Source: Euryarchaeota archaeon UBA181 (lineage in GTDB: Archaea > Thermoplasmatota > Poseidoniia > Poseidoniales > Thalassarchaeaceae). From it: a stretch of DNA of 54,618 nt. Numbering within the stretch: position 1 is the stretch's first letter; each line of letters begins with the position of its first letter. The notes under the pieces were generated by a model that saw nothing but the letters and a program-made list of their open reading frames with translations, searched no databases and had not been told where the DNA came from. The DNA lies in the NCBI GenBank assembly GCA_002496725.1, contig DALI01000068.1:1-54618 (forward strand). Reading direction: 5' to 3'. Positions 729 to 49,369 of the stretch are shown here, one piece after another. The translations under genes were made by a program, and so were the position numbers.

Positions 729-3128
729 GTGCGTGCTGCCACGATATTGACCCTAGCCGCCTTACTGATGGCCACCTTATCCCCAATAGCACATGCTGAC
801 ACAAGGGGCGTGATAATTTGTGCAGGCGCTGATATGGAGATGATGCCAGCAAATTGGGAACTCGAGGACCAGGCATGCGTCAGAGTCGATCTCGGAGTTC
901 TCCAACAGGGAGAAACACTCTCATTCGACATCACCACAGACTCGGAAATAGACATACTCCTATTTTCATCGAACGCTATTACAGTCTATCAGAACGAGCA
1001 GTCTTACAGAAGTGACTCAGTATGGGAGAGTGACTCCGTCTTCGAGGAATTCAACGGCTCAGGGGCTTGGCATTGGACAGTTCCATCCGACAGAGACGCT
1101 ACTCGTTGGTACATGGTCTTGGATAATCTGGCACACCCACAGGACTCAGGTTCTGGCGACCAAGGGGTAGAACCTGCATCCGTGACCCTCGATGCGACTA
1201 CCATCTCACCTCAGCCATTCACTCTGGTAGACACCATCGTTCGCCTGGAGTCAGGCGAGCACTCCATTCTCTACGGGCCTTTCTCTATGGACGAAGGAAC
1301 CCAAGTTAGCATTCAGGTCAGTACAATGGAAGGTGCCCCAGACGTATTCATGATGAACGAAGAACAAGTCGAGTTGTACACCTCAGGTGGAACGGCCGCA
1401 GCACGCATACAGGGAACTGACATGCTCCTGATAACATCCAGCAGGAGTATCGTCTGGACCGTACCGGGCTCTCTCGAGGGAACTGACCTCTACCTCGTCG
1501 TCGATAACAGACCAGGGCCTTCAGGAGGAGGTGCTGGAACCCTCCCAATCGCGTCTACTGTAGTCATGACATTGACTCCAATAATGGATCCAATAATCAG
1601 TGGTATTTCCCCCTCTGGGACTGTAGATGTAGGGGCTGAGATAACCTTGGACGCATCCAATACTCCGAACCTGTCCAATCAAATTTCTGATTCTGGATAC
1701 TCGTGGGATACAGATGGCGATGGGTTTGATGATAATTCTGGAGTGCTATTCAACATCAGTTGGCCCGAGCCCACTAACATTACGATCAGGCTTTCAATAA
1801 CCGGTACCGATGGCAGAAGTACTAGCGTGTATGAGGAAGTAAGGGTCGAGGACATGTCTCCGCCATCCGTCGAGATTTCTGTTGAAGGGGTTCTCGAGAG
1901 ATCATTCAATGAAGACATAGTTCTAGGCTCCACATTCACTGACAACTGGGGTGTTTCCAAAGTAGAGTGGCTGGTGGATGGAGAGCTCCACTCTGAGTTC
2001 GAAGATGACTTCGGGACAGCATCCACATTCTCACACACATTCCAATCTGGAGAAGAATCAGGAATCCACCTAGTGACTCTCAGGGTCACCGATCTCTCAG
2101 GAATGATCACCGAGGACACAGCTTCAATCCAGGTCTTCGACTCCACATCCCCTGTCGCAGGAGCATTCGACAACTCCCTGATTTCCACAGTGGGAGAGCT
2201 TCTCGAATTAGAAATACCATTCGAGGACCAGGAGTCAGAGAATCTGTACTTCTCTTGGGATTTCGACGCACAAACCGATACTGATGGCGATGGTGATGAG
2301 GATAATGACGAGGATGCAGTTGGACCAATGGTACAACATTCATTCGATGAATCAGGAGTATACAGAGTAATCTGTAGGGCTCAGAATGACGAGGGCTTGG
2401 TATCAGTGGTGGAAATCCTCGTCACTGTGACCACGGTTTCCAGCGATGACGAGTTAGGGTTCACTGAACTACTGATGGCCCTCGGTGGAGTAATTCTACT
2501 GATAGTGATAGTATCGATGGTTTATCTGAGGGTCGCCTCCAATCGAAGGATGGCCTCTATCATTGCAGAGTCCGAGGCCAAGAAGGACGAGCAAGAATCA
2601 CAACCCAAGGAGATCTCAGTGGATGAGCAGAAGGCGATGTGGGGCGGCACTAGCACCAGTTCCGCTGTCTCCCAGCCCCAAGCCCTAGGTGGTGGCATAG
2701 CAAGCGGGATGTCAGGTGCTATTTCCTCCGAATCAGAAGCGTCATCAATAGACATTAGCGATGAAGAGTTCGACGAATTACTCTCGGCCCCCAGTGTCCA
2801 GAGAGAAGACAGTCAGGCAAATGACCTTCTCAGCGCATTCCAAGATGACGATGATGAGGTCGATCATGAAGGGAGCGTAGTGGAGTATACCTTCCCAGAA
2901 GAAGAATCTTCCAATCATGAGATTGAAGATAGTTTTGACTCAGCAAAGGTATTCCAGGTTATCGAATCCGAAGAAGAAACCATTCCTGATGCTACCGAAG
3001 ATAGAACGGTGAGGAGTAATTGCTCGAAGTGCGAGAAGATGTTCGAAGTCGACCTTCCAGAAGGTGTCGATAAAGCACGAACAGCTTGTCCACACTGTGG
3101 CTCGATTGAAACAGTGGAACTCGCGTGA
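729..3128 (+). CDS. Secreted type-I membrane protein: duplicated beta-rich N-domain, three PKD/Ig-like modules, one TM helix, ~200-aa acidic cytoplasmic tail ending in a zinc ribbon
   Basis: GTG start with a Sec-type signal peptide MRAATILTLAALLMATLSPIAHA. Two ~100-aa modules both end in Y-[ML]-V-[LV]-D-N (RWYMVLDN / DLYLVVDN). PKD signatures are YSWDTDGDG and FSWDFDAQTDTDGDG. The TM helix LLMALGGVILLIVIVSMVYL (about nt 2460-2530) is followed by RVASNRR (positive-inside). The tail is Asp/Glu/Ser-rich. Confidence 0.8.
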   Translation: MRAATILTLAALLMATLSPIAHADTRGVIICAGADMEMMPANWELEDQACVRVDLGVLQQGETLSFDITTDSEIDILLFSSNAITVYQNEQSYRSDSVWESDSVFEEFNGSGAWHWTVPSDRDATRWYMVLDNLAHPQDSGSGDQGVEPASVTLDATTISPQPFTLVDTIVRLESGEHSILYGPFSMDEGTQVSIQVSTMEGAPDVFMMNEEQVELYTSGGTAAARIQGTDMLLITSSRSIVWTVPGSLEGTDLYLVVDNRPGPSGGGAGTLPIASTVVMTLTPIMDPIISGISPSGTVDVGAEITLDASNTPNLSNQISDSGYSWDTDGDGFDDNSGVLFNISWPEPTNITIRLSITGTDGRSTSVYEEVRVEDMSPPSVEISVEGVLERSFNEDIVLGSTFTDNWGVSKVEWLVDGELHSEFEDDFGTASTFSHTFQSGEESGIHLVTLRVTDLSGMITEDTASIQVFDSTSPVAGAFDNSLISTVGELLELEIPFEDQESENLYFSWDFDAQTDTDGDGDEDNDEDAVGPMVQHSFDESGVYRVICRAQNDEGLVSVVEILVTVTTVSSDDELGFTELLMALGGVILLIVIVSMVYLRVASNRRMASIIAESEAKKDEQESQPKEISVDEQKAMWGGTSTSSAVSQPQALGGGIASGMSGAISSESEASSIDISDEEFDELLSAPSVQREDSQANDLLSAFQDDDDEVDHEGSVVEYTFPEEESSNHEIEDSFDSAKVFQVIESEEETIPDATEDRTVRSNCSKCEKMFEVDLPEGVDKARTACPHCGSIETVELA
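3021..3098 (+). other. C-terminal CxxC-x18-CxxC zinc-ribbon motif on the predicted cytoplasmic tail of the PKD protein
   Basis: CSKCEKMFEVDLPEGVDKARTACPHC read directly from the translation. It lies ~190 aa downstream of the only TM helix. Confidence 0.6.
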
Positions 3129-3211: not shown

Positions 3212-6200
3212 ATGACAAAGAGCGGTGTCCGCGTTGTTCACAGGGCCCCACGGCTCCAGAACAACAATGCGTTACTAGTGGTTCTTGTTATGCTAATCCC
3301 ACTTTTTGCACCTATTCAAGGCGCAGAGGCAGAGGCTAGAATCGAGTCACAGGACTTCGAAATCCTCGATCGTCTTTCTGATGTACTAGATAATCGTCAA
3401 CAGGTGCTAGACTCTAACTCTGTGGGGCAAATGGCCGGACCTGCCATTCAGGGCGTCAAGGATGGAATATCTCCTAGCGGGCAAGCCCAACCTCTTTCTT
3501 CAATAGGGGACTCCCTCGAAGGGTCTTCCTTTACCGAGACAATGCCTTCAGAGCCTGAACATTCTCTGCCATACAGGCTGATTCTTGGAATCGAGGATGA
3601 TGCGGTTAGCGTTGACAACGTCTGGCAGACTCTCGTGAATATCACTGACTATGTCATCCTAACAGAGTACACAGATTTGGATGGAAACGTAGTTACGGGG
3701 ACTGAAGTAGTAACATTCACTGCTAATTTCCTCTCTCTCATAAACCTACAGACTGATCCTCTGAGTCATGCAGTAGACATTGACAATGATGGCGATGACG
3801 ATATTCAAGTCGGGCTGAGCATCTCTCTTGGCAACATAGGCTTAGACAACATAGATCTCGATACTGGAACGTTATGGATACAGCCCTCAGTCTCTTATTC
3901 TGTGGATGTCCTTGATTCGAGTCAGACGGACAGTGTCTGGGATGAAATGGACTCCTTACAAGTGTCTTTAATCAAGTCTTTCGCCTACTCAAGTCCCGAT
4001 TCGGTACTGGCGCTTGGGGATGGAGAGAGCTATATTTGGGTAGTCGACTCCAGATTCTCAACAATGCCTCAGGATTTCTCCCTGAGTATTGGGATCGAGA
4101 GGATATTCTTCAATGCGAGCGCCGTACTGCAAGATCTCATACAATCACTAGTGAATATATTCGCGTCGGATTTCGATGGCTCGGGCCTGACCCTTATTGG
4201 CATATCAGCCCCTTACTCGATATCCATAGACTCCAGTGAGATGGATTCTTGCCCAGATAGGTATAGTCCCGAGCAGCTTCTCTTTCTGCCCCCCGAAGAG
4301 ATAGATTGTGGAGTTTCCGTAGGTCTTGGGTATGCTAGATTCTCTCCTCCCTCAGAGGGTGTAAGGCAACTCTGGGAACTCGCATACATCGATCTCGATG
4401 TCAAACCAAATGGTGTCTCCTCGATGATTCCCGGAGATGTGGAGCTAGTAATCAGAACGGATAGTACAATCCCCGCAGCTGGTGGGATAGAGGGAGATAG
4501 AAGCCTCACTACCGTTGAGTATTTCGCAGATAGGAGATCGGATATACACATTCACTTCTTTGAAGACAGGGCTGGTGTTCCTGCTGAGGATAACGGGGGC
4601 TCATTCGGTAACACCACGGAATCACTTGGGTGGTTGAGAGGAATGCCCGAGGGCTCAATGTCCCAAGGGGAGATAACTAGGATTTTCAGAATGCTAGGAT
4701 CCTCCGATGAGCCAGATTTGCCTGGGGGCAAGCCAAGTAGATTGGGGTTAATACTGGGAATAAAGAACTTCTCAAGAGACACAAGCCCGAACGAGGATGA
4801 CCCAACTCTGCCAGTGAATCCAGCATATCCCCCGATCAGTATGATTCTACTCAGATCAGCGCAACCTCTTGATTCGTTGGACTACACCTCGTGGTTCGAG
4901 AGAGGGGGGGAATCAGCAGATCACAGAAGGGTCGATATTTCTATTCAGTCGATACCCACAGCCCTGGTTCTCTTCGGGTCCTTTGATGTCAGTGGATCAG
5001 ATGATGCTCAAATCAGCCTCGATGACTCAAACAATCTTGATTTCGTATCTAGAATAATGGACTCACTGATTCTAAATCTGGTAGATCTATACCTAGATGT
5101 TGGGGGAATACTCAACAGTATCCCCACCACAGTTGTGGAAGCAATAACTGGTAGTGTCGGTCCTAGTGGCGATTTACAAGGTAGGGAATTCAACTTATTG
5201 ATGCATGATAACTGGGGCGCATTGAGAAACGAGATGGCGATTGGGAGAGTCGGATTGCAAATAGGCTCCAGCCCACATCCAATCATCCTAGGGGACCATC
5301 TGGTTCTCTCCAAAGACAAGGGCCTTACTCAGGTGGTAAGTAGGGAGGGGACACTAGTGGACCCACTCGTTCCTGTGGCTGCCAGCATAGGTTTCAGTGG
5401 CCTCTCCGCCTTCTCAATCGATGATGACGATATTCTCGATGAACTAACCGTCTCAGTGAATACATCATCCAGTGAACCATTCAATTTCGTCTATATCGAT
5501 CACGAGCCTAGAACAATTTCCAACTCTTCGTATCAGGCACTCGCCATTTCTGATATTCCAGATGACATCAGTATCATGATAGATTCTGAGACAGCGACTT
5601 ACACTGCATCCCAGGGAATGGGCAAGATAACCTACACGGGAAAGGATCTGGAACAAAGGCAAGCTGTTGAAATAACTGATTTTCCAAATGAGTTCACAGC
5701 GTTTTTCGGAGGATTCTCTAGCTGGTCAACGACTTCATCTATCGGTATGATAGAAGCCCAAATCACAGATTCCCAGGATCCCGAAACAATGTCTGGAGAT
5801 CACTTCATGTTCCACCATGATCCGAATGATGGAACATCAACAATATCCTCCAGAATTTCAGGAATATCTGAAGTCAGTTGGATCCCCCCAATCTCCGAAG
5901 GATCCCTAGGGCCCGATGGTAGGGGAAAGGCGTCTATCTCTGCATCAGGGGATAGATCAATGAGCCTTAGCGTAGACCATGCTCCGACTTTGGATGAAGA
6001 CCAACTAACCGCTGTCGCAATAATAGATCCATTACCGTCATCAGTTTCTATAGAAATTCCAACTAGCTCTGACTCAGGCCCCGCTCTCGACATACCTGAA
6101 CTTAACACAAGTCTAGGATTGTCTGGGCTAGCCTTCTTCCTTGGAGGATTCGCTGATCTTGGTAGGTCGGTTAACACCGTCCTTTCTGGAATAACCACTG

Positions 6201-7609
6201 ATATTTCAACAGGAGCAAACTCTGGGGAATCCAGTGAGGATTTCTCTTTTGGCATGCAGTTAGAGGCCAATGCGCCCTTTGACCTGGTAGTTGAGTCAAG
6301 TCACGGAAATGGGTCCCTAGAGGCCCCCCCGTGGGTCCATGGAGTCTCATTCAATGCCGCCCCCTCGGGAATCTCGGATGGCTTCCATCTTAGGACATGG
6401 ATTCCCGATCTACCTCCGGTAGTCGATATGTCTGTATCCAGATCCGTTGAAGGGGAATCCCAAGACTGGCATGTGATGTTGGCATTAGACGGCTGGATCC
6501 CTGCTCATAGTGAAATGATGATCCAGGCTAGGGGGATAAACGGTCAAGACCTGCTAATGACTCTCAATGGACTGGAAGTGGGAACTCCTACTGGTATGCT
6601 CATAGACTCAACGTTCGAGTTTGAGACGGTAGCAGGAATTACAGAAGTTTCCACCTCTGCACACTATTCAATGACCGAAAGATTAGACTGGGCTCATGTA
6701 CTACTGATCAACAGGGATGCAGGAAGTCGTACTGAGATAATGATTGACGAAATCCCAGAGGTGATTGATATCACTGCAAGTCTCGGTACCGCAGTTTCGA
6801 TAGACATGACAGTGCCGGATCAATACTTGAGAGAAGACGGAGTCGGAATAAATTCGATAATGATGCAACAGATGCAATGGCTGGACTCAGCATGGTGGCC
6901 AGCAACTATTTTCTTGACCGATGTTCCCGGATCTATCAACCTAACAACTGAGCCAGATACAAACTTCGACATAACCCAGAGTCTCGCATTCCAAGGAATC
7001 CCCATACTGGACTATCGGGCTTCAGGAGAAGGGATGTCACTTTACATCGAGGCTTTTGGAAGATCGATTAATACTAAGGGAGATATAATTTTACTCGCGG
7101 AAGGACTATCAGATAGCCTAGTCATCAAGCCAGCCGACGGATATGGTTTGAATATCCGATCAGGAGGGGATGGAGTTGATACAATATATATCAGATCTAG
7201 CAACATACCTACCACTCCACCTGTGACCATGGAGGAGATGGAGGCATTGGGCGAGAACCTCAAGAGCGCTACGATACATATCCATGAACTCGGCCGAGTA
7301 TCATCGACACTTCCCGGCTACCCAGTTATCGAACTGTCAGATGTCCAAGGTGGTAAGATAATCATCTCGGCAAGAGCATCAGCAGAATTCGCAGGACAGG
7401 AGTTTGACCTTAGGGGTGTTCTCCTAGATGCCCAAACAACGTCTGGAATACCCACTGCGACTACCATAGGTGTCAACGGCCTAGCTTCCGATCTCTCTAT
7501 TCTGAATATTATTCCTGGATTCGAAGGGGAGACACAGCATATCATGGTAGTAGAGCCAGTATCATCGGGTATAATGACCCTTATCGCAACTTTTCTGGGG
7601 GGTAGTTGA
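3212..7609 (+). CDS. Giant (1465 aa) secreted orphan protein, candidate cell-envelope/S-layer-like glycoprotein
   Basis: ATG with a GAGGTG SD. N-terminal signal/anchor is RLQNNNALLVVLVMLIPLFAPIQGAEA. There is one integrin/FG-GAP-like Ca loop (DIDNDGDDD). By eye there are at least nine N-x-S/T sequons. A short C-terminal hydrophobic segment (SSGIMTLIATFLGGS) has no basic stop-transfer. I recognise no other domain. Confidence 0.8.
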   Translation: MTKSGVRVVHRAPRLQNNNALLVVLVMLIPLFAPIQGAEAEARIESQDFEILDRLSDVLDNRQQVLDSNSVGQMAGPAIQGVKDGISPSGQAQPLSSIGDSLEGSSFTETMPSEPEHSLPYRLILGIEDDAVSVDNVWQTLVNITDYVILTEYTDLDGNVVTGTEVVTFTANFLSLINLQTDPLSHAVDIDNDGDDDIQVGLSISLGNIGLDNIDLDTGTLWIQPSVSYSVDVLDSSQTDSVWDEMDSLQVSLIKSFAYSSPDSVLALGDGESYIWVVDSRFSTMPQDFSLSIGIERIFFNASAVLQDLIQSLVNIFASDFDGSGLTLIGISAPYSISIDSSEMDSCPDRYSPEQLLFLPPEEIDCGVSVGLGYARFSPPSEGVRQLWELAYIDLDVKPNGVSSMIPGDVELVIRTDSTIPAAGGIEGDRSLTTVEYFADRRSDIHIHFFEDRAGVPAEDNGGSFGNTTESLGWLRGMPEGSMSQGEITRIFRMLGSSDEPDLPGGKPSRLGLILGIKNFSRDTSPNEDDPTLPVNPAYPPISMILLRSAQPLDSLDYTSWFERGGESADHRRVDISIQSIPTALVLFGSFDVSGSDDAQISLDDSNNLDFVSRIMDSLILNLVDLYLDVGGILNSIPTTVVEAITGSVGPSGDLQGREFNLLMHDNWGALRNEMAIGRVGLQIGSSPHPIILGDHLVLSKDKGLTQVVSREGTLVDPLVPVAASIGFSGLSAFSIDDDDILDELTVSVNTSSSEPFNFVYIDHEPRTISNSSYQALAISDIPDDISIMIDSETATYTASQGMGKITYTGKDLEQRQAVEITDFPNEFTAFFGGFSSWSTTSSIGMIEAQITDSQDPETMSGDHFMFHHDPNDGTSTISSRISGISEVSWIPPISEGSLGPDGRGKASISASGDRSMSLSVDHAPTLDEDQLTAVAIIDPLPSSVSIEIPTSSDSGPALDIPELNTSLGLSGLAFFLGGFADLGRSVNTVLSGITTDISTGANSGESSEDFSFGMQLEANAPFDLVVESSHGNGSLEAPPWVHGVSFNAAPSGISDGFHLRTWIPDLPPVVDMSVSRSVEGESQDWHVMLALDGWIPAHSEMMIQARGINGQDLLMTLNGLEVGTPTGMLIDSTFEFETVAGITEVSTSAHYSMTERLDWAHVLLINRDAGSRTEIMIDEIPEVIDITASLGTAVSIDMTVPDQYLREDGVGINSIMMQQMQWLDSAWWPATIFLTDVPGSINLTTEPDTNFDITQSLAFQGIPILDYRASGEGMSLYIEAFGRSINTKGDIILLAEGLSDSLVIKPADGYGLNIRSGGDGVDTIYIRSSNIPTTPPVTMEEMEALGENLKSATIHIHELGRVSSTLPGYPVIELSDVQGGKIIISARASAEFAGQEFDLRGVLLDAQTTSGIPTATTIGVNGLASDLSILNIIPGFEGETQHIMVVEPVSSGIMTLIATFLGGS

Positions 7610-8169
7610 TGGGCCTTCTTGAGAGAATTAGACAGGTCGAAGAACCTGATGAGACATTGGAAGAGAGAACTGCTCATGATGCGCTAGATCTACTCGAAGA
7701 AAAACTCAGCCATATTTCGCCCTACAGGGTCATTTTTGCCTCTCTGACCGCACTTCTGGTCCTATCAGCCTCCTTGGTTGCCGTAGTGTGGTTAGTTCCG
7801 TATGATAGGGTATCTGTCGATGTGGTCTACAAGCAGGGGGGGTCTAGTCACATAATCCTCGCTGAGATAAACAACCAGGGTAGCAGGTCTATTGAGTCTG
7901 TATCTCTAGATCTGATCTTCATAGATTCAGAAGGTATGGAAATTCAAAGGACTCATTTCGAATCAGACAGAATCTCTGCCCATAAGTCACTAGCTGGGGA
8001 TGAACTGGAAATGATAGTTAACGGTGAATCAGTATGGGAAAACTACACAATTGACATAATTCTCACTTATGACAACTATCGTAAGAGTGTCTATGAGAAG
8101 AATACAATGGATGTGGGAGACTGGACTCTGGAGCTTTTCACAGTGAGGCCACCCTTGCAGATTCTATGA
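7609..8169 (+). CDS. Small bitopic membrane protein with one CARDB-like ectodomain, translationally coupled to the 1465-aa gene
   Basis: The ATG at 7609 shares its A with the upstream TGA (TGATG); the ORF-track start at 7606 is TTG. The protein has an acidic N-terminus, a TM helix VIFASLTALLVLSASLVAVVWLV, and a ~120-aa beta-rich domain containing ILAEINNQGSRS, the [VI]-x-N-x-G motif also repeated in the two following genes. Confidence 0.65.
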   Translation: MGLLERIRQVEEPDETLEERTAHDALDLLEEKLSHISPYRVIFASLTALLVLSASLVAVVWLVPYDRVSVDVVYKQGGSSHIILAEINNQGSRSIESVSLDLIFIDSEGMEIQRTHFESDRISAHKSLAGDELEMIVNGESVWENYTIDIILTYDNYRKSVYEKNTMDVGDWTLELFTVRPPLQIL

Positions 8170-8224: not shown

Positions 8225-11200
8225 GTGACCAAGCGCGCCGTTGTCCTCGTACTCTCCGTCCTGCTCCTGTCATATCTGCCTATTCTGGGCGAAGACGATG
8301 ATCGAGTAAAGCCACAACAGGAAGGTCTGGAGTATTCATTGGAGCGTGTCGAGATATCCCCTGATCCAAATAGCATCAGGAGTCTGGGGAGTCCCTCAAT
8401 ATACGATGGCCCTGAAGATTCCAGGCAAGTTATCGCCCACTCATCGATAGGAACCTACTCTCTCAATGGATTAATTCCTAGTACTCACATGGACCATTCA
8501 CTTGAGATTCCTAGGTCCGATCTAGCCATTGCTCTAGTGGATGGACAGACCGGCCTGTGGGATGCTAGGATGGACATTCTCCAATTGGAGGGAATCTCAA
8601 TCAGATCCACTATCCCCCCTTCCGGATTCCTAATCCAAGGGAGCCATTCATCTCTCGTTAAGCTGAATTCCCTAGAGTCCGTTGTTTCGATTCATGATGT
8701 TCCAAGCGGATTATTAGTCCATCCCTCTTTGAGGCACACTAGCCAACAATTCGACTTGATGATTGAGGTAATAGGCTGGAAGGGCGATGATATGGTTCGT
8801 CTAGAGAATCCAGGGCTAGGTCTTGACGACTCTTTGCATTCTGTGGCTCCTCAAATGACCGATGCCTGGTCTCCCGAGCCAGGGGTGTTGTGGGGCAAGA
8901 TATCTTCGACAAACATATCTGAAATCATCTCTCATCCATCCGTCTCATACATATCCCCCCTCCCAATACTCGTTCTTCACAATGACCAAGCAAGGGTAAA
9001 TATGGGAATTAATAGTGTTGAGAATGCCTTCATTACTGGTCTGAATGGTAGTGGACAGATTGTTGCAGTAGGAGACTCAGGTTTAGATAACGATCACGGG
9101 GATTTTACAGGTAGAATTTCTGGCATCACTTCCGTAACACCAGGTGACTCCTCAACCGCTGACCCAAGTGATGGTCACGGGACACATGTTGCATGTACAG
9201 TGCTTGGCTCAGGCTTCAGGAGCAGTGGGGGATACAAAGGAATCGCTCCCGAGGCAGATCTCTATTTCCAAGCCATGGAAGATGACGATTCGGGGGCATT
9301 GTATAGCTATGGAATAAACTCGATGCTCAATTCAGCCTACAATGCAGGGGCGCGAATACACACAAATAGCTGGGGGTCCACAAGCGGATTTGGAGGCTAC
9401 TCTACTCAGTCGGAGGATGCCGATGATAGAACCTCTACATGGGATCAGTACTGGTCGTATGACGGAATGACAGTTCTTTTCGCTGCGGGCAATGAAAGAG
9501 ATGACGGCGTCTCCCCACCAGGAACTGCAAAGAACGTAATCACGGTTGGAGGGCACAAGAACAGATACAGTGGTGCTCCAGATGAAATGTATTACTGGAG
9601 CAGTAGGGGACCGACCGATGATGGTAGGATAAAACCAGATTTAGTCGCCCCAGGGGACTATGTTCGTTCCTGTAAAGCCCAGGAGGCTAGCTCCGCAGGC
9701 GGCACTTGGTCCAACACATGGTACATGGAGTACAGTGGTACATCCATGGCGACTCCTGCCGCAGCTGGCTCATCCGCACTAGTAAGGGAGTATCTGACCG
9801 AGGTGATAGGTAGGCAGGCACCACAGGGCTCTCTCATCAAGGCCCTCCTAATCTTAGGGGCCAAAGATATGGGAAGTAGAGACATACCAAACAATGATGA
9901 GGGCTGGGGAAGGGTCGATTTAGTTGAATCCCTGATTCCAGATGGAGAAATAGGAATATTTGTTGATGATAGATCTAGGATAAAGAGCGGTCAAGTAGTA
10001 GAATATACCTTCGACGTCAATTCACCTGGCAATGAGTTCAAGGCAGTACTTGCTTGGTCAGATTATCCCGGCTCTTCTAGCTCATCCATTCAACTCAGAA
10101 ACGATCTCGATCTGGAACTCATCTCCCCTGATGGCATTACGTACAAGGGCAATGTCTTCACCAATGGGAGATCCTCTCAAGGAGGGACTAAGGACTCAGT
10201 GAACAATGTCGAAGTCGTCGCTCTTGACAGTACAGCCCAAGGAATCTGGACAATCAGAGTTACGGACTCACAGCATGGCGGGTCTAGGACATGGCAACCG
10301 TTCTCCATAGCAGTAAGGGGCCATAACGTGAATGATCTGAGTGCTGATCCAACATTCGTCCCTGACTCCATGAATATCTCAACTCCTATCCCCCAAGTAG
10401 GGGAGGACGTAGAGGTTTCTGTCCTAGTGAAGAATCTAGGAGCAGGGTCCATAGTAGACGTACCAGTCATCGCCAGAGTCAACTCGGCCCCTCTGGGGGA
10501 GCAACTGGTATCCCTATCTCCGGGTGAGACCGTTGAGCTGATGTGGACATGGTCCCCCGAGAGTGAGGGAGATGCGGCCTTCGAATTCTTCATCGACCCA
10601 AACAATCAATTCGATGAGATGTCAGACTCCAATAATTATCTTGGAGATATTGTGATCGTCAGTGCCCCAGGAGTCAGAGTTTCGGCACAGCAGGACACGA
10701 TTATCTTAGTAGACACATCATCCACCACATCTACCTGGGACTTAACTCTGACAAATACCGCACTCTTCGAGACAAATGCTACGATATCCGCCACCTCTCC
10801 CGTTAGAATCCAAGACGGCACGCAATTCGGCTGGTTCCAGTCTTTCACCTCAAACACGTTCAACCTCATGCCCGCTGAGCAAGTTTCTGTTGGGATGACT
10901 ATGGTTCACCCAGCTCCCCCTCCCCCTGGAATCTACTCAATGACACTATCAGGATACGATTTGGAGAACGATATACAATCAGATATCACACTATATTTCG
11001 AAGTCCCCGTTCTAGCAGACGCAGACATACAACTACTGAATGAGCAGATTCTTGTCAATCCATTTGATTCAACCAGTACCCAAATTACGATCGTCAATGA
11101 TGGAAATGGTGCCCAATCATACGATGTCGAGCTCGTTTCTCCTGCGGGATGGCATCTGGGACTCGACTCAATAGGGACGTTCGAAGGATCCTCACATGGA

Positions 11201-12709
11201 TCCACTGGAACATTGCAGAAAGACTCCAGTAGGACTGTTGACATCACAATCAATCCACCTGGTGCAATGATACCCGCGGGAACAACCTTCGAAGCGGCAA
11301 TAATCCTACACTCAAGGGTAAGCTCGGTTTCTTGGACACAGGACATCTTCCTCATCGTAGGCTCAGTGGACGAGTTCTCACTATCTCCCCAATCTGGGGA
11401 AGTAAAGGAAGAAATCTCTCCAGATTCCCTTCTCTTAATCGATTTCTCAATCGAAAATATTGGCAATAGGGATTGGGAAATGACCCCTTATCTGATGACT
11501 GTTCCCGGAGGGTGGAATGTTGTAGGGCCTCTCAGTGCAGTGACAGTTCCCGCTGGCCAAACCGTACTTTGGTCAATGGAGCTACAGGGTAATGGAATTG
11601 CTACAAGTGGCCTCATTGAGATTAGACTAGCCACCTCTGATGGATTCAGAATTGACTGGAATACTACAATAGAGGTTCTCTCTGCGGCATCACCCCAACT
11701 AATGTTTAACCAGGTATTTCTTCCAGATGGCTCTTCCTCCGATGAAATCCTAGGTGTTGGCTCCCATCCAGTTGGAGAACCTGGATTCGACCTCCACTGG
11801 ATGGTTTGGAACGAAGGCTCGGGAGTATGGAGGCCAACCACGGTCCTAGATCTGCCAAATCAAGAGTGGTCATCATCATGTTCTTCTCCTTCTTCACTTG
11901 CTCCAGGCGAGTCGGATATAGTTGAGTGCCTAGTGGTAATTCCCGATGACGAGCCTGCTGGATCAGAACCGATAATCACTCTGATTATGGAGGGGGACGG
12001 AATCGAGATTAGAGATACAAAGTCACTTCTCGTAGAGGACTCTCCAAGGCTATCTTGGACACTGCAAACAGAGCCTATAGCCCATGAAGGATATACATCC
12101 TCATACAGAATATCTGTAACTAACACAGGGAATAGCGATGTCTCACATACATTCGACGTTGAGGCCCCGGAATCCTGGAATGCTAGGGCTATCGATGGCG
12201 TGAGAATTGTGTTAAGTCCCGGTGAATCACGAAGTGTAATATTGGAGTTCACGCCCAATAGTGGCTCAGATTCGACAATATCAATCAATCTGATCAATTC
12301 CCAAGATTTCGAGGGCTCAACATTTGAAATTCCTGTTGACGTTATGCCATCACTAGGTAGTAACTCAGACTTAGGGGATTACCTTCCCTTCATACTGGGA
12401 ACCCTCCTCATCGCCGTGTTCGCCGCTCTCGGTACCTATGCTTATGTCAGGACTAATGGAGATCCTCTGAGTATGCTGAACAATAAGACACAAGGGAGAA
12501 GAGCAAGGTTGAATGACGCTCCTGAGATGGATAGTACTGGTGTCCCATGTTGGATATGTAGTACTGATGTTTCTGTTGGAAATGCACTAGCCTGCTCCTC
12601 GTGCGGTGCTAGATATCACAAGCAGAACCAAGTCAATGGATGTGATATTATCTCCATGGGAAGATGCCTGCATTGTGATGCAGATGTCGATGAACTCGTA
12701 GAGGCCTGA
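8225..12709 (+). CDS. Membrane-anchored subtilisin-like serine protease (peptidase S8) with beta-barrel post-domain, multiple CARDB/NEW3-like modules, TM helix and cytoplasmic zinc-finger tail
   Basis: GTG start with GGAGG 7 nt upstream and signal peptide MTKRAVVLVLSVLLLSYLPILG. Catalytic triad motifs are VGDSGLD (Asp codon 9074-9076), DGHGTHVA (His 9176-9178) and SGTSMATPAAAG (Ser 9743-9745). LAWSDYPG...LRNDLDLELISPDGITYKGN resembles the jelly-roll domain that follows KP-43-type subtilases. Repeats carry VSVLVKNLGAGS, QITIVNDGNGAQ, DFSIENIGNRDW and YRISVTNTGNSD. The TM helix YLPFILGTLLIAVFAALGTYAYV is at nt 12380-12448. Confidence 0.9.
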   Translation: MTKRAVVLVLSVLLLSYLPILGEDDDRVKPQQEGLEYSLERVEISPDPNSIRSLGSPSIYDGPEDSRQVIAHSSIGTYSLNGLIPSTHMDHSLEIPRSDLAIALVDGQTGLWDARMDILQLEGISIRSTIPPSGFLIQGSHSSLVKLNSLESVVSIHDVPSGLLVHPSLRHTSQQFDLMIEVIGWKGDDMVRLENPGLGLDDSLHSVAPQMTDAWSPEPGVLWGKISSTNISEIISHPSVSYISPLPILVLHNDQARVNMGINSVENAFITGLNGSGQIVAVGDSGLDNDHGDFTGRISGITSVTPGDSSTADPSDGHGTHVACTVLGSGFRSSGGYKGIAPEADLYFQAMEDDDSGALYSYGINSMLNSAYNAGARIHTNSWGSTSGFGGYSTQSEDADDRTSTWDQYWSYDGMTVLFAAGNERDDGVSPPGTAKNVITVGGHKNRYSGAPDEMYYWSSRGPTDDGRIKPDLVAPGDYVRSCKAQEASSAGGTWSNTWYMEYSGTSMATPAAAGSSALVREYLTEVIGRQAPQGSLIKALLILGAKDMGSRDIPNNDEGWGRVDLVESLIPDGEIGIFVDDRSRIKSGQVVEYTFDVNSPGNEFKAVLAWSDYPGSSSSSIQLRNDLDLELISPDGITYKGNVFTNGRSSQGGTKDSVNNVEVVALDSTAQGIWTIRVTDSQHGGSRTWQPFSIAVRGHNVNDLSADPTFVPDSMNISTPIPQVGEDVEVSVLVKNLGAGSIVDVPVIARVNSAPLGEQLVSLSPGETVELMWTWSPESEGDAAFEFFIDPNNQFDEMSDSNNYLGDIVIVSAPGVRVSAQQDTIILVDTSSTTSTWDLTLTNTALFETNATISATSPVRIQDGTQFGWFQSFTSNTFNLMPAEQVSVGMTMVHPAPPPPGIYSMTLSGYDLENDIQSDITLYFEVPVLADADIQLLNEQILVNPFDSTSTQITIVNDGNGAQSYDVELVSPAGWHLGLDSIGTFEGSSHGSTGTLQKDSSRTVDITINPPGAMIPAGTTFEAAIILHSRVSSVSWTQDIFLIVGSVDEFSLSPQSGEVKEEISPDSLLLIDFSIENIGNRDWEMTPYLMTVPGGWNVVGPLSAVTVPAGQTVLWSMELQGNGIATSGLIEIRLATSDGFRIDWNTTIEVLSAASPQLMFNQVFLPDGSSSDEILGVGSHPVGEPGFDLHWMVWNEGSGVWRPTTVLDLPNQEWSSSCSSPSSLAPGESDIVECLVVIPDDEPAGSEPIITLIMEGDGIEIRDTKSLLVEDSPRLSWTLQTEPIAHEGYTSSYRISVTNTGNSDVSHTFDVEAPESWNARAIDGVRIVLSPGESRSVILEFTPNSGSDSTISINLINSQDFEGSTFEIPVDVMPSLGSNSDLGDYLPFILGTLLIAVFAALGTYAYVRTNGDPLSMLNNKTQGRRARLNDAPEMDSTGVPCWICSTDVSVGNALACSSCGARYHKQNQVNGCDIISMGRCLHCDADVDELVEA
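12548..12676 (+). other. C-x2-C-x11-C-x2-C-x4-H-x7-C-x7-C-x2-C (C4HC3 order) zinc-finger motif on the cytoplasmic tail of the S8 protease
   Basis: CWICSTDVSVGNALACSSCGARYHKQNQVNGCDIISMGRCLHC read directly from the translation, ~30 aa after the TM helix and basic stop-transfer (RTNG...RRAR). Confidence 0.55.
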
Positions 12710-12761
12710 CAATCGTATCTCTAGCGGTCATAGGGTGCGAAGGGCTTAGAGGGTCGGTATT

Positions 12762-15464
12762 GTGCGAAATGTGATGGTTAGCAGAAGACCCCTGACTTTT
12801 TTCATTGTAATCATGCTTCTAAGTATGTCTGCAACCGTTGTTTCCGCCGATGTAGACATTTCTCTTTCCGCGAACCCAAGCTCAGCTGAGGCAACACCAG
12901 ATGAGGCCGCTGAGTACAACATATTGATCCAGAACTCAGGGGATGATGATGCCGCTGTCTCCCTCAGTACCCAACAAGGAAATGATTGTAACGGGTTCTC
13001 CTCGACTTTGGAAACCACATTCGTTCAGGTCGGGTCTCAATCCTCAGAGTCAGTTACCCTCACTGTCACAGTCACCGACCAAGCCAGTGGTGAGTGTGAG
13101 ACTACTGTAAATGCACAGGGGCAGGTATCCGGTGGTGCACCAGGAACTCCTTCGAATGCTGATGTCACCGTTGTAACTACAGCAGGAGACGGAGGGGGGC
13201 TATATTCCGTAAGCCTCTCCACTGATGAGTCCACAACAAAAAACTATGATGGCGAGGATAATGATGTTACCTGGGATGTCGATGTAGAGAACAACGGGGA
13301 ACAGCAGGCGAACGTGCAACTGGAGATGATCTCTGACAGTGACTGCGAGTCAGATGAACTATCTGCTACAGTAGACCCCTCCGTTCTTCAGTTAGAGCCA
13401 GAAGCGCAGGAAGAAGTCACTGTTACTGTGGATATGCCAAATGGGGGTGAAACTGACGCAGGGTCCCATTGTTTCATATTGAAGGCCACTGTTACCAATG
13501 ATCCAAATGCGGCCGACCAAGCTGAAGATAATTTGACCCTGAGCCTCAATGTTCCGCAAATAAGGGAATGTGACGCATCTCTACAGTATAGCTCTCACAA
13601 CCTCGACCCCGGAGAGTCAGCACCAAATTCCATCGAAGTCGAGAACATTGGAAACACGGAGTGGACTGTGACGGCAAATGCACAGTCTGTAGATGGTGAG
13701 GATATTTCAGAGTGGATAGATTTCGACAGTCCTCGGAGTACGCTCTTGGAAGAGCCGGGTAGCTCAGAAGATACTCATACATTCACATTCGAAGTAACTC
13801 CAGACGACTCTCTTGAGGCAGGAACCCAAGTTGCAATTGGAATACAGGGTAGAGCTGGTTCTGAGATAGGATGTGAGAAAATTCTCACAGTCACTGTGGG
13901 GCAAGAGTTCGGTGCTTCTATGGCACTAAGTAAGTCAACTCTCTCGAACGTACAACCGGGGTCATCCGGGATCCTTTCATTACAGGTCACAAATCAAGGG
14001 AACGGCCAGGAAACTATGGCATTAGGTACATCGGGCATACCTGCTGGATGGCAAGTCTCATTCTCACAGTCATCAGTTACTCTCGGCAGTTCCCAATCAT
14101 CCACCAACAGGGAGACCGTAGATGTGGAAGTATTCGTCCCTGAGGACGCTAGCGCAGAGTCCGATGCTGTAATCACCTTCACAGTGGGCAGAGGAGGAGG
14201 CTCCACCCCATATGCGTCCGGGGATCTCACTGTATCTGTAGCCGCTAGGCACGAGGTCTCCACGTCAATGGTATCGGATCAACAGACTGGTAGATCTGAT
14301 CAGATTGTGCAGTTCCCAATTGTTGTTACTAACTCAGGTAATATTCAGGACACTTTCAGACTACAAGCTTGTGATCCTGGGGATCAGACAGGATGTAGTA
14401 ACCCAATGTGGCAATCTTCGTTTTCAGATTCAGCCGGTAATTCCATCTCACAGATAGTACTTGATCAGGGCGAGTCAGATCAGATTTATCTGGATGTACT
14501 GGTAGAGGGAGAAGAAGATGCAGACTCCGCAGACGTACTTGTGAGGATAGGTATCTTCGGAACTAGCGAGTCCTCAGAGCATACTGTTTCTGTAATAGTC
14601 TCGAATTATAATTATGGAATGGCGGTGTCCCCTCAATCACCCGGAGATGTCCCAGGACAAATGGATGTCATCCTGCCTCCTGGAGGCTTGTTATCGTCAT
14701 TCTTCTGGATAGATAATACGGGAGACTATCCGGCGGGGGATACTGCAGTTATTACAATAACAGGATTAGAATCATCAGTTACTAGGAACGTTTTCGTTGA
14801 TGGGGTTGAGATTGAGAACTCTATTCAGATCCCGAGAGAAGGAAGAGTTCTCGTAGAGGTCCAGATGGAAGTGATGGAAGGCGTCTCCAATGGAGTATCT
14901 GGCATACTAAAGGTATCAGCGGCTTCTGAGAGGAACGCCGCTCAGACCACATCCATTGACGTGATGATACAAGTCATGACGATACATGATCTAACATTCA
15001 CGCTTGAAGGCGAGGATGAGCAGACCTTAGAATATCCAGACAAGGCATTCTTCAGCATGTTTGTCACAAATAATGGAAATGTCGTTGAGGATGTCGAGGT
15101 GAAATCAGGAGAGTCCCTCAGAGGTTGGACGATTGACGTTATTGAAGACGAGTTCCAGCTTCAGCCCGGTGAAACCAGAGAGATTCAAGTCCGAGCAACA
15201 CCTCCCTCTGAACTCCTCGGCGATGATACGTACAGGTTCACAGTAATTGCTCAGCCTGAGGGGATTCCAGTCGCAGGTCAGCCAATCGAGCTCACTGTAA
15301 TTGCCATCTCTTCCAATTCCTTCCTAAATCTGTCAGAGGAGGTCCAAGACATACTGGTGTATGGGTTAACTGGCTTCGGCGCACTACTAGTAATCGCTCT
15401 TTTCTTACGCTCTAGAGCAGAAAATAAGAGGATAGTTCGGGCACTCGATCAAGATGACTCATAG
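12762..15464 (+). CDS. Secreted, C-terminally anchored protein of about seven tandem CARDB/NEW3 (COG1470-like) beta-sandwich modules
   Basis: GTG at 12762 with GAGGGT 7 nt upstream (alternative ATG at 12774) and a signal peptide ...FIVIMLLSMSATVVSA. There are seven [VI]-x-N-x-G motifs: LIQNSGD, DVENNGE, EVENIGN, QVTNQGN, VVTNSGN, WIDNTGD, FVTNNGN. The first three modules each hold a Cys pair. The C-terminal TM helix ILVYGLTGFGALLVIALFL is followed by RSRAENKR. Confidence 0.8.
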   Translation: MRNVMVSRRPLTFFIVIMLLSMSATVVSADVDISLSANPSSAEATPDEAAEYNILIQNSGDDDAAVSLSTQQGNDCNGFSSTLETTFVQVGSQSSESVTLTVTVTDQASGECETTVNAQGQVSGGAPGTPSNADVTVVTTAGDGGGLYSVSLSTDESTTKNYDGEDNDVTWDVDVENNGEQQANVQLEMISDSDCESDELSATVDPSVLQLEPEAQEEVTVTVDMPNGGETDAGSHCFILKATVTNDPNAADQAEDNLTLSLNVPQIRECDASLQYSSHNLDPGESAPNSIEVENIGNTEWTVTANAQSVDGEDISEWIDFDSPRSTLLEEPGSSEDTHTFTFEVTPDDSLEAGTQVAIGIQGRAGSEIGCEKILTVTVGQEFGASMALSKSTLSNVQPGSSGILSLQVTNQGNGQETMALGTSGIPAGWQVSFSQSSVTLGSSQSSTNRETVDVEVFVPEDASAESDAVITFTVGRGGGSTPYASGDLTVSVAARHEVSTSMVSDQQTGRSDQIVQFPIVVTNSGNIQDTFRLQACDPGDQTGCSNPMWQSSFSDSAGNSISQIVLDQGESDQIYLDVLVEGEEDADSADVLVRIGIFGTSESSEHTVSVIVSNYNYGMAVSPQSPGDVPGQMDVILPPGGLLSSFFWIDNTGDYPAGDTAVITITGLESSVTRNVFVDGVEIENSIQIPREGRVLVEVQMEVMEGVSNGVSGILKVSAASERNAAQTTSIDVMIQVMTIHDLTFTLEGEDEQTLEYPDKAFFSMFVTNNGNVVEDVEVKSGESLRGWTIDVIEDEFQLQPGETREIQVRATPPSELLGDDTYRFTVIAQPEGIPVAGQPIELTVIAISSNSFLNLSEEVQDILVYGLTGFGALLVIALFLRSRAENKRIVRALDQDDS

Positions 15465-16602: not shown

Positions 16603-16609
16603 GGCTATC

Positions 16610-44095: not shown

Positions 44096-44533
44096 ATGAG
44101 CGACAGGTGGGATGTAAGATTCATAGAACTCGCAAAACACATTTCTCAATGGAGTAAAGACCCATCTACAAAGGTAGGATGCGTAGTAGTTGGAGAGGAC
44201 AGGGAGATCCGATCAACCGGTTTCAATGGATTCCCTAGGGGGATCAAGGATGATGAGGATAGACTATCTGACAGATCAAAGAAGTACCCATTAATTTGTC
44301 ACGCTGAAGAGAATGCGATAATGCATGCGGCCAGGGTCGGAGTTTCCCTCAAAGGAAATACTGCCTATGTTACATGGCCACCATGCTCGAGATGCACGAG
44401 ATCCCTGATTCAGGCAGGGATAAATGAAGTTGTTTTTCCAAAGAGCTTGGATATTCCCGATAGATGGCAGGAAGACTTCAGGATTGCAATGTCTATGATG
44501 GATGAGGCCGAGATAATCGTCAGACAGGTTTAG
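44096..44533 (+). CDS. dCMP (deoxycytidylate) deaminase
   Basis: CHAEENAI and PCSRCTRSLIQAGI zinc-binding motifs. GAGGTG SD 5 nt upstream of the ATG at 44096. Confidence 0.9.
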   Translation: MSDRWDVRFIELAKHISQWSKDPSTKVGCVVVGEDREIRSTGFNGFPRGIKDDEDRLSDRSKKYPLICHAEENAIMHAARVGVSLKGNTAYVTWPPCSRCTRSLIQAGINEVVFPKSLDIPDRWQEDFRIAMSMMDEAEIIVRQV

Positions 44534-45071
44534 TAAGTGTCAACCAGAGCTCATTCAAATCGTCGTGAAGGTCTTCAATAGCTCCTTCATTCACAATGAC
44601 CATATCGGCCAATGCGGCTGTGGCATTGAGTGCCTGTCCAGCCTCATCCTTGGCAACTTCTTCAGATTTTTCTTGAGCTATGAAAACCTCTTTCTCTAAT
44701 GGATCGCCTATCCTCGCACGACTCTGGGATCTACCCCACCTTGAATCGATACCTGCTCTTATCTCAATCAGTGTGAAATCACTTCTTTTTCTCAATGCCT
44801 CTACCTCTCCCGGTGTTCTTATGGAGTCTATGACGGCATCTTCCCCATCAAGCGAATCAAGAAGCATTTCTGCAAGTACACCCGCCCCGCCCCTTCGACG
44901 GAGCTCCCTGCCACCTTCAATCAGAGAATCCCTAGTCTCTTCTATCTCCTGCTCTGACAGCCACCGCCTTATCGAATCAGAGCATGAAGTTGTTCTCAGA
45001 CCCTTGGAAGAGAACCAGCTAACGACAGTTGTTTTCCCGGAAGCATTCCGGCCAGTCAGTCCCACGAGCAC
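44520..45071 (-). CDS. P-loop nucleotide/nucleoside-monophosphate kinase-like protein (CoaE/UPF0200-like)
   Basis: GLTGRNASGKTTV Walker A, VIDSIRTPGEVEAL and a 183-aa size. The substrate is not assignable from sequence. Confidence 0.6.
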   Translation of the reverse strand: MLVGLTGRNASGKTTVVSWFSSKGLRTTSCSDSIRRWLSEQEIEETRDSLIEGGRELRRRGGAGVLAEMLLDSLDGEDAVIDSIRTPGEVEALRKRSDFTLIEIRAGIDSRWGRSQSRARIGDPLEKEVFIAQEKSEEVAKDEAGQALNATAALADMVIVNEGAIEDLHDDLNELWLTLTKPV

Positions 45072-48088: not shown

Positions 48089-49369
48089 TCATGGATGTGG
48101 AGGAATATCATCAGACCAGTGAGACATTTTATTCAATGTAATTGTCACATTCGTCAATTCTCCCTCTTCCCAGTAATCGACAGCAATAAATGTCGGTCTG
48201 TTCACGTTTTGCTCCCAACAATCTAGTGTTCTATTCAGTAAGGTGTCATAGTCGTTAACCTCACTTGCCCCAGATGGATCAGCTAATCCAAATGTGCTTG
48301 ATAGCCAGTTACTAAGATGCCAAACCGGTTGATTGTAATCCCCTCTTCCCAATTCACAAGTCATATCACCTGCATCTCGCTGGCCGTATGGTGTATCCCA
48401 GCTATGCTTCCAAGCGGCATTGAAAAATGGATATGAATCATTATGCTCAAGCTGCACAAAGATTACTACATCCTTACCCATCAATGACATATCTCCTATT
48501 GATGGCCACGGATCGCCAAGACTGTGAATGTAAGCCCTATCTAAAATTCCAGTCTCATTGAAGAGGAACTCCAGATGTTCGGCTGGAGTGTAGTAGTTCT
48601 CAATCAATAAACTGACCACATCGCCACTACTATTGTTGAGCAAAGACCCCAATTCTCTTAGCCAAGCGAAGGCATCTACCTCGCCAAATTGACAGGCATG
48701 GAAGAATTGCCCGGTACCATGACAGAACCTGACATCTGTGGCACTAGTGTCATCTTCGGATTTATGATGTGGGTCTAGCATAAATGCCCTAATGCCACCA
48801 TCCCATTGGGCATGAAGTCCAGTATAGTGATTAGTTCCAACGATTATTTGATCTTCTACGGAAGAGTAGGAATTATGAGTCTCAGGAAATGTGAAATCAT
48901 CGTATGACCTCATGCAGTAAATACTCATTCCATGACAGGACATATAGTCCTCAGAGTTCAGATAATCGAAGCCCCGTTCTTGCTCCCAATCATTGGGAAG
49001 GCCATCTCCATCTGCGTCATTGTCCAATAAATCACATATCCTATCTCCATCATTGTCTTCCGGAGTTGATGAATTATCCATCGGATCTGCACTACAATCC
49101 ATCTCTGTAGAATCACTCCATCCATCATTATCATCATCATTATCGAGGATATCACATTCTCCATCATTGTCTAGATCAGATGGCCAGCTACTTGAAAGAA
49201 GCCAGTCAGTACTACAATTCATCTCAGTTTCATCATCCCACCCGTCACCATCAACATCCATGTCTTCGTCGTCACTTATTCCATCTCCATCTAGATCAGG
49301 AGGGCCTGAAATACATCCAGATAATAGCAACGCGAGGGCCATCAATACCGACTCGCACTTCCTTTCCAT
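48089..49369 (-). CDS. Secreted lipoprotein: thrombospondin type-3-like Ca-binding repeats plus PLC-like (PI-PLC X-domain-like) phosphodiesterase domain
   Basis: Lipobox LLLSGC. There are four to five DxDxDGxxDxxD-type repeats (DLDGDGISDDEDMDVDGDGWDDE, DLDNDGECDILDNDDDNDGWSD, DNDGDRICDLLDNDADGDGLPND). It then carries PETHNSYSS, GGIRAFMLDPHH and RFCHGTG, which resemble the small PI-PLC X-domain family. The domain call is tentative. Confidence 0.6.
   Translation of the reverse strand: MERKCESVLMALALLLSGCISGPPDLDGDGISDDEDMDVDGDGWDDETEMNCSTDWLLSSSWPSDLDNDGECDILDNDDDNDGWSDSTEMDCSADPMDNSSTPEDNDGDRICDLLDNDADGDGLPNDWEQERGFDYLNSEDYMSCHGMSIYCMRSYDDFTFPETHNSYSSVEDQIIVGTNHYTGLHAQWDGGIRAFMLDPHHKSEDDTSATDVRFCHGTGQFFHACQFGEVDAFAWLRELGSLLNNSSGDVVSLLIENYYTPAEHLEFLFNETGILDRAYIHSLGDPWPSIGDMSLMGKDVVIFVQLEHNDSYPFFNAAWKHSWDTPYGQRDAGDMTCELGRGDYNQPVWHLSNWLSSTFGLADPSGASEVNDYDTLLNRTLDCWEQNVNRPTFIAVDYWEEGELTNVTITLNKMSHWSDDIPPHP

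Follow-up and report, generated by a model that had tools for sequence, protein, structure and literature searches.

A Putative C4HC3 Double-Zinc Finger at the C-Terminus of an Order-Wide Surface Subtilase of Poseidoniales Archaea

Here, we describe a putative double-zinc finger at the extreme C-terminus of a membrane-anchored subtilase encoded on contig DALI01000068.1 of Euryarchaeota archaeon UBA181 (GenBank assembly GCA_002496725.1; family Thalassarchaeaceae), analyzed over positions 1 to 54,618 (the window). The finger (12536..12706, + strand; residues 1438-1494), delineated from sequence, alignments, AlphaFold, and Foldseek, is 57 residues long, has eight ligands in the order C4HC3, follows a single transmembrane (TM) helix, and lies on the cytoplasmic side by simple topology logic. 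It forms an independently folded domain that most likely binds two zinc ions, zinc being the metal suggested by the ligand pattern and predicted fold. Judging from sequence searches, it is exclusive to one orthologous subtilase family across Poseidoniales. Poseidoniales (Marine Group II), an uncultured group, rank with the most abundant surface-ocean archaea and are believed to live off the degradation of proteins and other polymers; the subtilase, a core gene with fixed synteny, is probably among their main extracellular proteases.

The subtilase and its C-terminal finger

The subtilase gene (8225..12709, + strand; GTG start, stop codon 12707-12709), identified from the open reading frame (ORF) list and Pfam, encodes a type-I membrane-anchored S8 peptidase of 1494 amino acids (aa). 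Its catalytic domain (9047..9910, + strand; residues 275-562), delimited by Pfam and motif positions, matched Peptidase_S8 (PF00082; E = 6e-47, 160.7 bits against a cut-off of 21.8), and the catalytic motifs stand in intact D-H-S order (DSG 284, HGTH 318, GTSMA 505), accompanied by AAGN 420. The product is a genuine subtilase with the features that define S8 membership. A hydropathy scan placed an N-terminal signal sequence at residues 1-25 (8225..8299, + strand; end approximate; Kyte-Doolittle [KD] maximum, 2.17), whose n-region is basic (TKR) and behind which comes EDDD. The extracellular stalk of immunoglobulin-like and beta-sandwich domains (10088..12268, + strand) comprises a P-domain of the proprotein-convertase type (10088-10282), CARDB (10373-10642), and NEW3 (12086-12268), all Pfam matches over the gathering score, with unassigned stretches in between. 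The single C-terminal TM helix, YLPFILGTLLIAVFAALGTYAYV (12380..12448, + strand; residues 1386-1408; KD maximum, 2.01), leads into a cytoplasmic linker (12449..12535, + strand; residues 1409-1437) with a basic stop-transfer cluster, the basic residues past the helix being R1409, K1421, and RRAR 1425-1428.

Hydropathy scanning found two hydrophobic segments only, the N-terminal signal and the C-terminal TM helix. No lysine or arginine occurs in the 15 residues ahead of the helix, an acidic stretch, and five occur in the 30 behind it. Because of these two segments and this positive-inside charge pattern, the ectodomain would lie outside the cell and the tail in the cytoplasm, whether or not the signal is cleaved. 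Seven of the protein's 11 cysteines fall in the last 53 residues, and four fall in the 1360-residue ectodomain. An earlier, sequence-only reading of this DNA had proposed an extracellular S8 subtilase, anchored in type-I fashion by this helix and a basic stop-transfer and ending in a cytoplasmic metal-binding module; translation, hydropathy, and the basic residues bear out the helix and stop-transfer, and the Pfam match, catalytic triad, two hydrophobic segments, and charge pattern agree with the rest. Across 12380-12709, no opposite-strand ORF of at least 60 aa was present, and neither Rfam nor promoter/terminator scanning gave a match in 11800-13300 and 12300-12900.

The ligand codons (all + strand) are those of C1442 (12548-50), C1445 (12557-59), C1457 (12593-95), and C1460 (12602-04) in the first half and H1465 (12617-19), C1473 (12641-43), C1481 (12665-67), and C1484 (12674-76) in the second. 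In the window protein, they are spaced C-x2-C-x11-C-x2-C-x4-H-x7-C-x7-C-x2-C, with 10 further residues to the stop, and the codons reproduce exactly the spacing first read from the translation. The signature is C-W-x-C ... C-x2-C-G-A-R-[YF]-H, with W directly after C1 and GAR[YF] ahead of the His.

Conservation was counted in 160 loci, each from another species of Poseidoniales (Marine Groups IIa and IIb [MGIIa and MGIIb]) and anchored only on CGAR[YF]H. The full eight-ligand pattern, along with the W behind C1, the GAR[YF] ahead of the His, and a C-terminus exactly 10 residues past the last Cys, was present in 159/160 loci, and the sole exception contains ambiguous bases. The sequence-only reading had staked itself on conservation of the Cys/His pattern in orthologues and had likened the C4HC3 order to that of cross-brace fingers; the order is invariant in the same 159 loci. 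It had also remarked that H-x7-C departs from the canonical H-x2-C, and this holds throughout: x10 goes with H-x6-C in one half, in agreement with the MGIIa set, and x11 with H-x7-C in the other. Given this conservation and the fixed C-terminus, chance is excluded as an explanation of the pattern.

A full-protein search found hundreds of full-length orthologues in Candidatus Thalassarchaeaceae (MGIIb, order Poseidoniales), and the 57-residue tail was present, aligned without gaps, in all orthologues of 54-82% identity. Invariant in the MGIIb finger alignment are the eight ligands, W6, S9, D11, G24-A25-R26-Y27, Q32, G35, and L54; in the order-wide alignment, they are C5, C8, C20, C23, G24, A25, R26, H28, C36, C44, and C47. 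The ligand set is C4HC3, because the His within C-L-H-C is variable and is replaced by N or Q in orthologues. Position -4 of the protein is always F or L in the finger loci. Mean identity to the window sequence among 71 MGIIb orthologues was highest in the catalytic domain (87%), followed by the finger (68%), the remaining ectodomain (54-66%), the TM helix (30%), and, lowest, the linker (23%), which has no invariant column and is longer and Pro/Ala-rich in MGIIa.

Tail profiles were also run against one genome per species (GTDB representatives), giving 271 and 98 confirmed stretches, which may partly overlap. All but two of the loci kept came from Poseidoniales, the sister family Poseidoniaceae (MGIIa) included, or from unclassified euryarchaeal (Methanobacteriota/Thermoplasmatota) records of metagenome-assembled genomes. 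The MGIIa finger carriers were end-to-end orthologues of the window protein in 80/80 cases, at only 35-40% identity; that the eight ligands and the W, G, A, and R stay invariant between MGIIa and MGIIb over this distance, and that the MGIIb finger is more conserved than the linker and TM helix, counts for a real, conserved domain. Two finger-bearing contigs are labeled bacterial, L053 (NZEQ01000031.1, Verrucomicrobiales) and L233 (PAJW01000011.1, Gammaproteobacteria). The subtilase orthologue encoded on L053 is full-length and colinear, so that misbinning of a Poseidoniales contig is most likely in this case, and neither contig is probably a true bacterial occurrence.

In an exhaustive search, HMMER compared the tail profile with every one of 1.84 billion representative proteins and gave 40 matches at E <= 0.001, with the finger at the extreme C-terminus in about 28. 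Every C-terminal match longer than 140 aa aligned colinearly with the C-terminal portion of this subtilase family. The finger is confined to this subtilase, so no other class of secreted protein would carry it; the sequence-only reading had left the question of further secreted carriers to a search with the tail alone, and the search returned none besides subtilase orthologues. The weaker matches were considered as other finger-bearing proteins and rejected, the remainder being C2H2 proteins, repeat proteins, and topoisomerase ribbons. A word-indexed search with a profile not biased toward subtilases (A3) gave five short fragments only, its query being too short to inform.

When 28 tails were scanned, no Pfam model reached its cut-off, the sub-threshold matches being Prok-RING_1, C1, DZR, zf-RING_11, and PHD, and NCBIfam gave no match. 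Prok-RING_1 (PF14446) was the commonest weak match, occurring in 25/28 tails with a best E of 1.5e-4; it spanned positions 2-33 of the 54-position profile at 16.9 bits, short of the 29.1 required. The C1 domain (PF00130) matched weakly in 22/28 tails (about 12 bits against 26.5), DZR (PF12773) in 18/28 (best E = 0.0015; 16.9-18.4 bits against 27.3), and PHD (PF00628) with 13-15.5 bits against 24. No description of the finger tail was found in the searchable literature, which, with the silence of Pfam and NCBIfam, agrees with the earlier impression that archaeal subtilases had not been described with such a feature. For domain databases, the tail is a sharply defined new family, C-W-x-C-x10/11-C-x2-C-G-A-R-[YF]-H-x6/7-C-x7-C-x2-C-x10-end.

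Predicted fold and metal ligation

AlphaFold2 predicted the finger with a pLDDT (predicted local distance difference test) score of 88.2 from the MGIIb alignment and 92.3 from the order-wide alignment (all five models at least 88.9). In the predicted structure, a hairpin forms at the C1/C2 knuckle, a second hairpin, terminating at the His, includes the C3/C4 knuckle, C6 is succeeded by a short helix, and the last residues form the final strand. Against the Protein Data Bank (PDB), Foldseek ranked RING domains on top for both models (TMq, 0.59-0.65; root mean square deviation [rmsd], 1.9-3.0 Å; E values of 0.03 or higher), among them RING1B (4s3o_B; TMq, 0.65; rmsd, 1.9 Å over 62 columns; probability, 0.99), Rad18 (TMq, 0.62), TRIM37 (probability, 0.94 and 0.99), Bre1, cIAP1, and TRAF6. 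Rubredoxins stood below the RINGs in the Foldseek lists (TMq, about 0.5).

Sequence searches of the PDB with the tail gave nothing better than borderline (E >= 0.003). The order-wide profile matched the C1 domain of GEF-H1 (E = 0.003, borderline), aligning C1, C2, C3, C4, and H, and the single-zinc ribbon 2nb9 (E = 0.004, borderline), aligning C3 and C4 with C7 and C8, so that the latter alignment gives the pairing expected of the second cross-brace site. In a cross-brace, site 1 would consist of C1442, C1445, H1465, and C1473, and site 2 would consist of C1457, C1460, C1481, and C1484. On these models, we regard cross-brace ligation as probable, and likelier than two sequential ribbons, which appear rather improbable. 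The sequence-only reading had offered both arrangements as equal; the RING-like Foldseek matches favor the first of them, the cross-brace.

Tail exchange and gene neighborhood

Whether the tail is missing from otherwise identical orthologues was another point on which the sequence-only reading had hung its case, and here the outcome is mixed: the finger is kept across the order but is absent from one MGIIb clade. These orthologues (50-54% identity) have, instead of the finger, an acidic linker and a C-terminal PGWLWD motif, L-x2-[FY]-x-[DE]-[YH]-PGWLWD-x4-E-x-W-[VI]-x-DP, which is Cys-free, strongly conserved, and covered by no Pfam model. In a neighbor-joining tree of ectodomains rooted with MGIIa, they are monophyletic and sister to the MGIIb finger clade that includes the window protein. 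The finger being present in MGIIa as well, the simplest account is that PGWLWD took its place once. The exchange shows that the finger is replaceable, which is not to say meaningless; with a conserved motif standing where the finger was lost, it supports the cytoplasmic tail as a functional module.

A PGWLWD scan of the species-representative genomes gave 160 confirmed stretches, of which 80 were kept (L081-L160). The records named to family or genus were all Thalassarchaeaceae, and no Poseidoniaceae (MGIIa) occurred among these 80 of 160. Behind each of three unrelated ectodomains, a TM helix and an acidic linker lead to the motif and then to the C-terminus: that of the subtilase, that of a beta-helix-like protein (about 1410-1480 aa), and that of an about 1135-aa protein whose repeats are of the thrombospondin calcium-binding type, the last two labels coming from reading the sequences. 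Examples, all outside the window, are L103 (2280-6590), L097 (3162-6575), and L083 (2157-6605). No assembly had both tail types on the subtilase, 23 paired a finger subtilase with a PGWLWD beta-helix protein, and 13 had PGWLWD on both proteins. The replacement is a natural experiment that can be used in a partner search by phylogenetic profiling.

Another cytoplasmic end-module is encoded nearby. The type-I PKD-domain surface protein (729..3128, + strand; 799 aa) has a TM helix (2469-2528), an acidic low-complexity cytoplasmic linker of about 160 residues, and a C-x2-C-x19-C-x2-C zinc ribbon (3021-3098) with weak Zn_ribbon_8/FmdB-type matches. The ribbon was kept in 115/120 homologues, down to 42% identity, with the consensus R.VR..CS.C..[MLK]FE[VLI].[LM]P.G[VIL]..[AS][RK]T.CPHCGS[IVM]E. 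In Poseidoniales, large surface proteins of type I thus repeatedly end in a conserved module on the cytoplasmic side. The window held no further copy of the finger or of PGWLWD, only unrelated CxxC pairs (PKD protein, helicase, spurious frame). The helicase, an Lhr-like DEAD/DEAH protein (DEAD_assoc; 45105-48059, - strand), has an internal C-x2-C-x16-C-x2-C at about residues 868-891, an ordinary helicase zinc ribbon with no relation to the finger.

Upstream of the subtilase lie a 1465-aa protein (3212..7609), with no Pfam or NCBIfam match and with its last ~300 residues 42-43% identical across the order, and a 187-aa bitopic protein (7606..8169, + strand), whose gene shares 4 nt, at the stop codon, with the gene ahead of it. 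The bitopic protein begins with a short, acidic stretch on the cytoplasmic side (MGLLER...AH..LE), followed by its only TM helix and by an external, weakly FxLYD-like domain. Downstream, a 900-aa choice-of-anchor T family protein (12762..15464; NCBIfam/Pfam) is encoded, and the nuo operon (16006-27386) lies past this surface-protein block. The order 1465-aa protein, 187-aa protein, subtilase, 900-aa protein, and nuoB, nuoC, and nuoD was kept in 63-76 of the 80 MGIIa loci, and the subtilase locus is core, vertically inherited synteny. No genes for ubiquitin (Ub), E1, E2, or JAB proteins were present in the 54.6-kb window, and the conserved neighborhood holds surface proteins and the nuo operon. 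The 187-aa protein was considered as a partner of the finger and found no support: its N-terminus does not co-vary with the tail type, looking the same in MGIIb genomes of either type, and differs between MGIIa and MGIIb.

Farther off are a presenilin-type signal-peptide peptidase (SPP; PF06550; 41339-42475, - strand) and a site-2 protease (S2P; Peptidase_M50; 51119-52630, - strand), which could in principle process the TM stubs of shed surface proteins and are unlinked to the subtilase. Four ORFs of 182-425 aa (48089..49369, - strand; 49459..50313, + strand; 50306..51118, + strand; and 44520..45071, - strand) had no Pfam match at E <= 1e-5.

Proposed function and comparison with known fingers

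It is, in our judgment, an even call that the finger is a cytoplasmic docking or clustering module and not a ligase. Suspended from a flexible, poorly conserved linker beneath the lone TM helix, the finger would serve protein-protein docking, either by self-association, as in dimeric RINGs via their C-terminal tails, or by binding a cytoplasmic or membrane-associated partner. Such docking or self-association may hold the protease in place on the cell surface, gather it into clusters, or set its position there. A recognition module is to be expected from the invariant W, the G-A-R-[YF], the fixed C-terminus, and the floppy linker, and the exchange of the finger for a motif common to several surface proteins suggests docking inside the cell or self-association. 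An intracellular partner is something that we infer. With a conserved inner domain, the protease would be not merely stuck in the membrane, and a factor inside the cell, or self-association of the tail, likely controls its placement.

Several observations weigh against this interpretation. No partner was found, and the cytoplasmic N-terminus of the 187-aa protein does not change with the tail type. The finger was lost and replaced in one MGIIb clade, so it is dispensable for the protease. The fold assignment and the ligand pairing rest on predicted models; no Foldseek E value was under 0.02, as expected of a 57-residue query; every family-model match to the finger lies under its curated threshold; and the H-x6/7-C and C-x7-C spacings match no canonical cross-brace family.

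Among other explanations, we find it doubtful that the tail is a generic structural cap unrelated to RING/PHD and made of two sequential four-ligand ribbons (C1-C4; H, C6, C7, and C8). The weak DZR matches fit such a cap, C-x2-C-x10/11-C-x2-C is classical two-knuckle ribbon spacing, rubredoxins occur among the Foldseek matches, and the two-hairpin DSSP pattern is compatible with it. In each Foldseek run, RINGs nonetheless stand above rubredoxins, superposing over the whole domain at a higher TM score and lower rmsd; 2nb9 joins C3 and C4 to C7 and C8, not to C1 and C2; and H-x6/7-C is no knuckle, while DZR reached 18 of the 27 bits needed. Another candidate is a rapidly folding, metal-stabilized plug without a partner, which would lock the C-terminus inside against pull-out or over-translocation of a very long, highly acidic ectodomain that hangs on one modest TM helix. 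The domain is indeed tiny, strictly C-terminal, and placed on a non-conserved linker, and the PKD protein has its ribbon in the same position; in a variant, the plug would be an iron- or redox-sensitive Cys cluster, the C3-C4 knuckle (aC.eCGAR) resembling that of rubredoxin. We consider the plug unlikely: the surface-exposed non-ligand W and G-A-R-[YF] are invariant order-wide, beyond a plug's needs; PGWLWD is too short for a folded plug yet strongly conserved, pointing to recognition; and the large cluster proteins 3212..7609 and 12762..15464 have no such module.

Slightly less probable again is a signaling or sequestration device in which the finger would hold a cytoplasmic regulator at the membrane until ectodomain shedding and intramembrane cleavage set free the regulator or the finger itself. 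The sensor-like ectodomain, one TM helix, and inner zinc module would parallel zinc-binding anti-sigma factors, and SPP and S2P are encoded in the window; these proteases, though, are housekeeping and 29-39 kb off, no regulator gene is linked, the synteny beside nuo is constitutive and core, an orientation with the C-terminus inside is the reverse of that of anti-sigma factors, and PGWLWD on several non-homologous surface proteins fits general anchoring better. A membrane-bound RING-type E3 ligase recruiting an E2-like enzyme with a ubiquitin-like protein is very improbable, even with catalytic RING domains as the best structural matches and Prok-RING_1 as the commonest weak family match; some prokaryotic RINGs are reported (Burroughs, Iyer and Aravind 2011) to be membrane-associated. 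In established structures, RINGs contact E2 through a hydrophobic residue before C2, Pro after C7, and a basic linchpin after C8. The equivalent positions of the finger are unconserved (I/S/T/V/L/A/N before C2, L/V/M after C7, and D/Q/N/G/S after C8), no Ub, E1, E2, or JAB genes lie in the window or the conserved neighborhood, the order is C4HC3, not C3HC4, and the finger is exchangeable for a 25-residue Cys-free motif.

Beyond docking or clustering as such, we offer tentatively, as the less probable and broader idea, an undescribed Poseidoniales system in which interchangeable cytoplasmic tails would serve as address tags for adaptors in the cytoplasm or at the membrane. Such tags would be the finger on the subtilase, the PKD protein's ribbon, and PGWLWD on the beta-helix protein, the thrombospondin-repeat protein, and one clade's subtilase; adaptors might place, cluster, or recycle surface enzymes, like those reading eukaryotic type-I receptor tails, and in the finger a prokaryote would be using the RING/PHD fold to organize membrane proteins and not as a ligase. 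If so, the surface organization of an uncultured, globally important group would be open to recombinant-domain experiments. The finger would also add to the archaeal instances of the RING/PHD fold that have no ubiquitin context, which bears on pre-eukaryotic use of the fold.

Compared with RING domains (RING1B/BMI1, Rad18, TRIM37, and cIAP), the finger likewise has eight Cys/His ligands in about 50 residues, a predicted fold that superposes, and a short tail past the last Cys with a conserved hydrophobic F/L at -4. Some RINGs, including many of the best matches here, dimerize through C-terminal tails. The finger differs in its order, C4HC3 where canonical RINGs have C3HC4 or C3H2C3, and in its setting on the cytoplasmic tail of an archaeal extracellular protease with no ubiquitin-system genes nearby.

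With PHD (PF00628), the finger shares the C4HC3 ligand order, and with both PHD and C1 it shares the first half, C-x2-C-x(9-21)-C-x2-C-x4-H (x10/11 in the finger). It has H-x6/7-C where PHD has H-x2-C, and its ligands 6 and 7 are 7 residues apart, not at least 12. The C1 consensus is H-x12-C-x2-C-x13/14-C-x2-C-x4-H-x2-C-x7-C. The middle part of C1 (PF00130) fits, and the GEF-H1 C1 domain is the best PDB sequence match, but the finger lacks the N-terminal His, has H-x6/7-C in place of H-x2-C, and has an extra closing C-x2-C. Unlike PHD and C1, it occurs in archaea, with no histone-tail or diacylglycerol signaling context.

Prok-RING_1 is, like the finger, a prokaryotic binuclear treble-clef finger, and the match spans C1 ... 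C-x2-C-G-x-x-[YH]-H. That family is associated with Ub/E1/E2/JAB genes. The match covers part of the model below cut-off, and such an association is absent at the subtilase locus. Cytoplasmic zinc ribbons (DZR, zinc_ribbon_2, and Zn_ribbon_8) resemble the finger as small Cys-rich modules inside bitopic proteins with a large external part; on such proteins, they are usually N-terminal, four-ligand, and broadly and promiscuously distributed, whereas the finger is C-terminal, has eight ligands, and belongs to one orthologous protease family. The fold class, and cytoplasmic zinc modules on bitopic prokaryotic proteins in general, were thus already known; new are the finger family, the spacing of its ligands, its strict limitation to one surface subtilase found throughout an archaeal order, and the exchange of tails.

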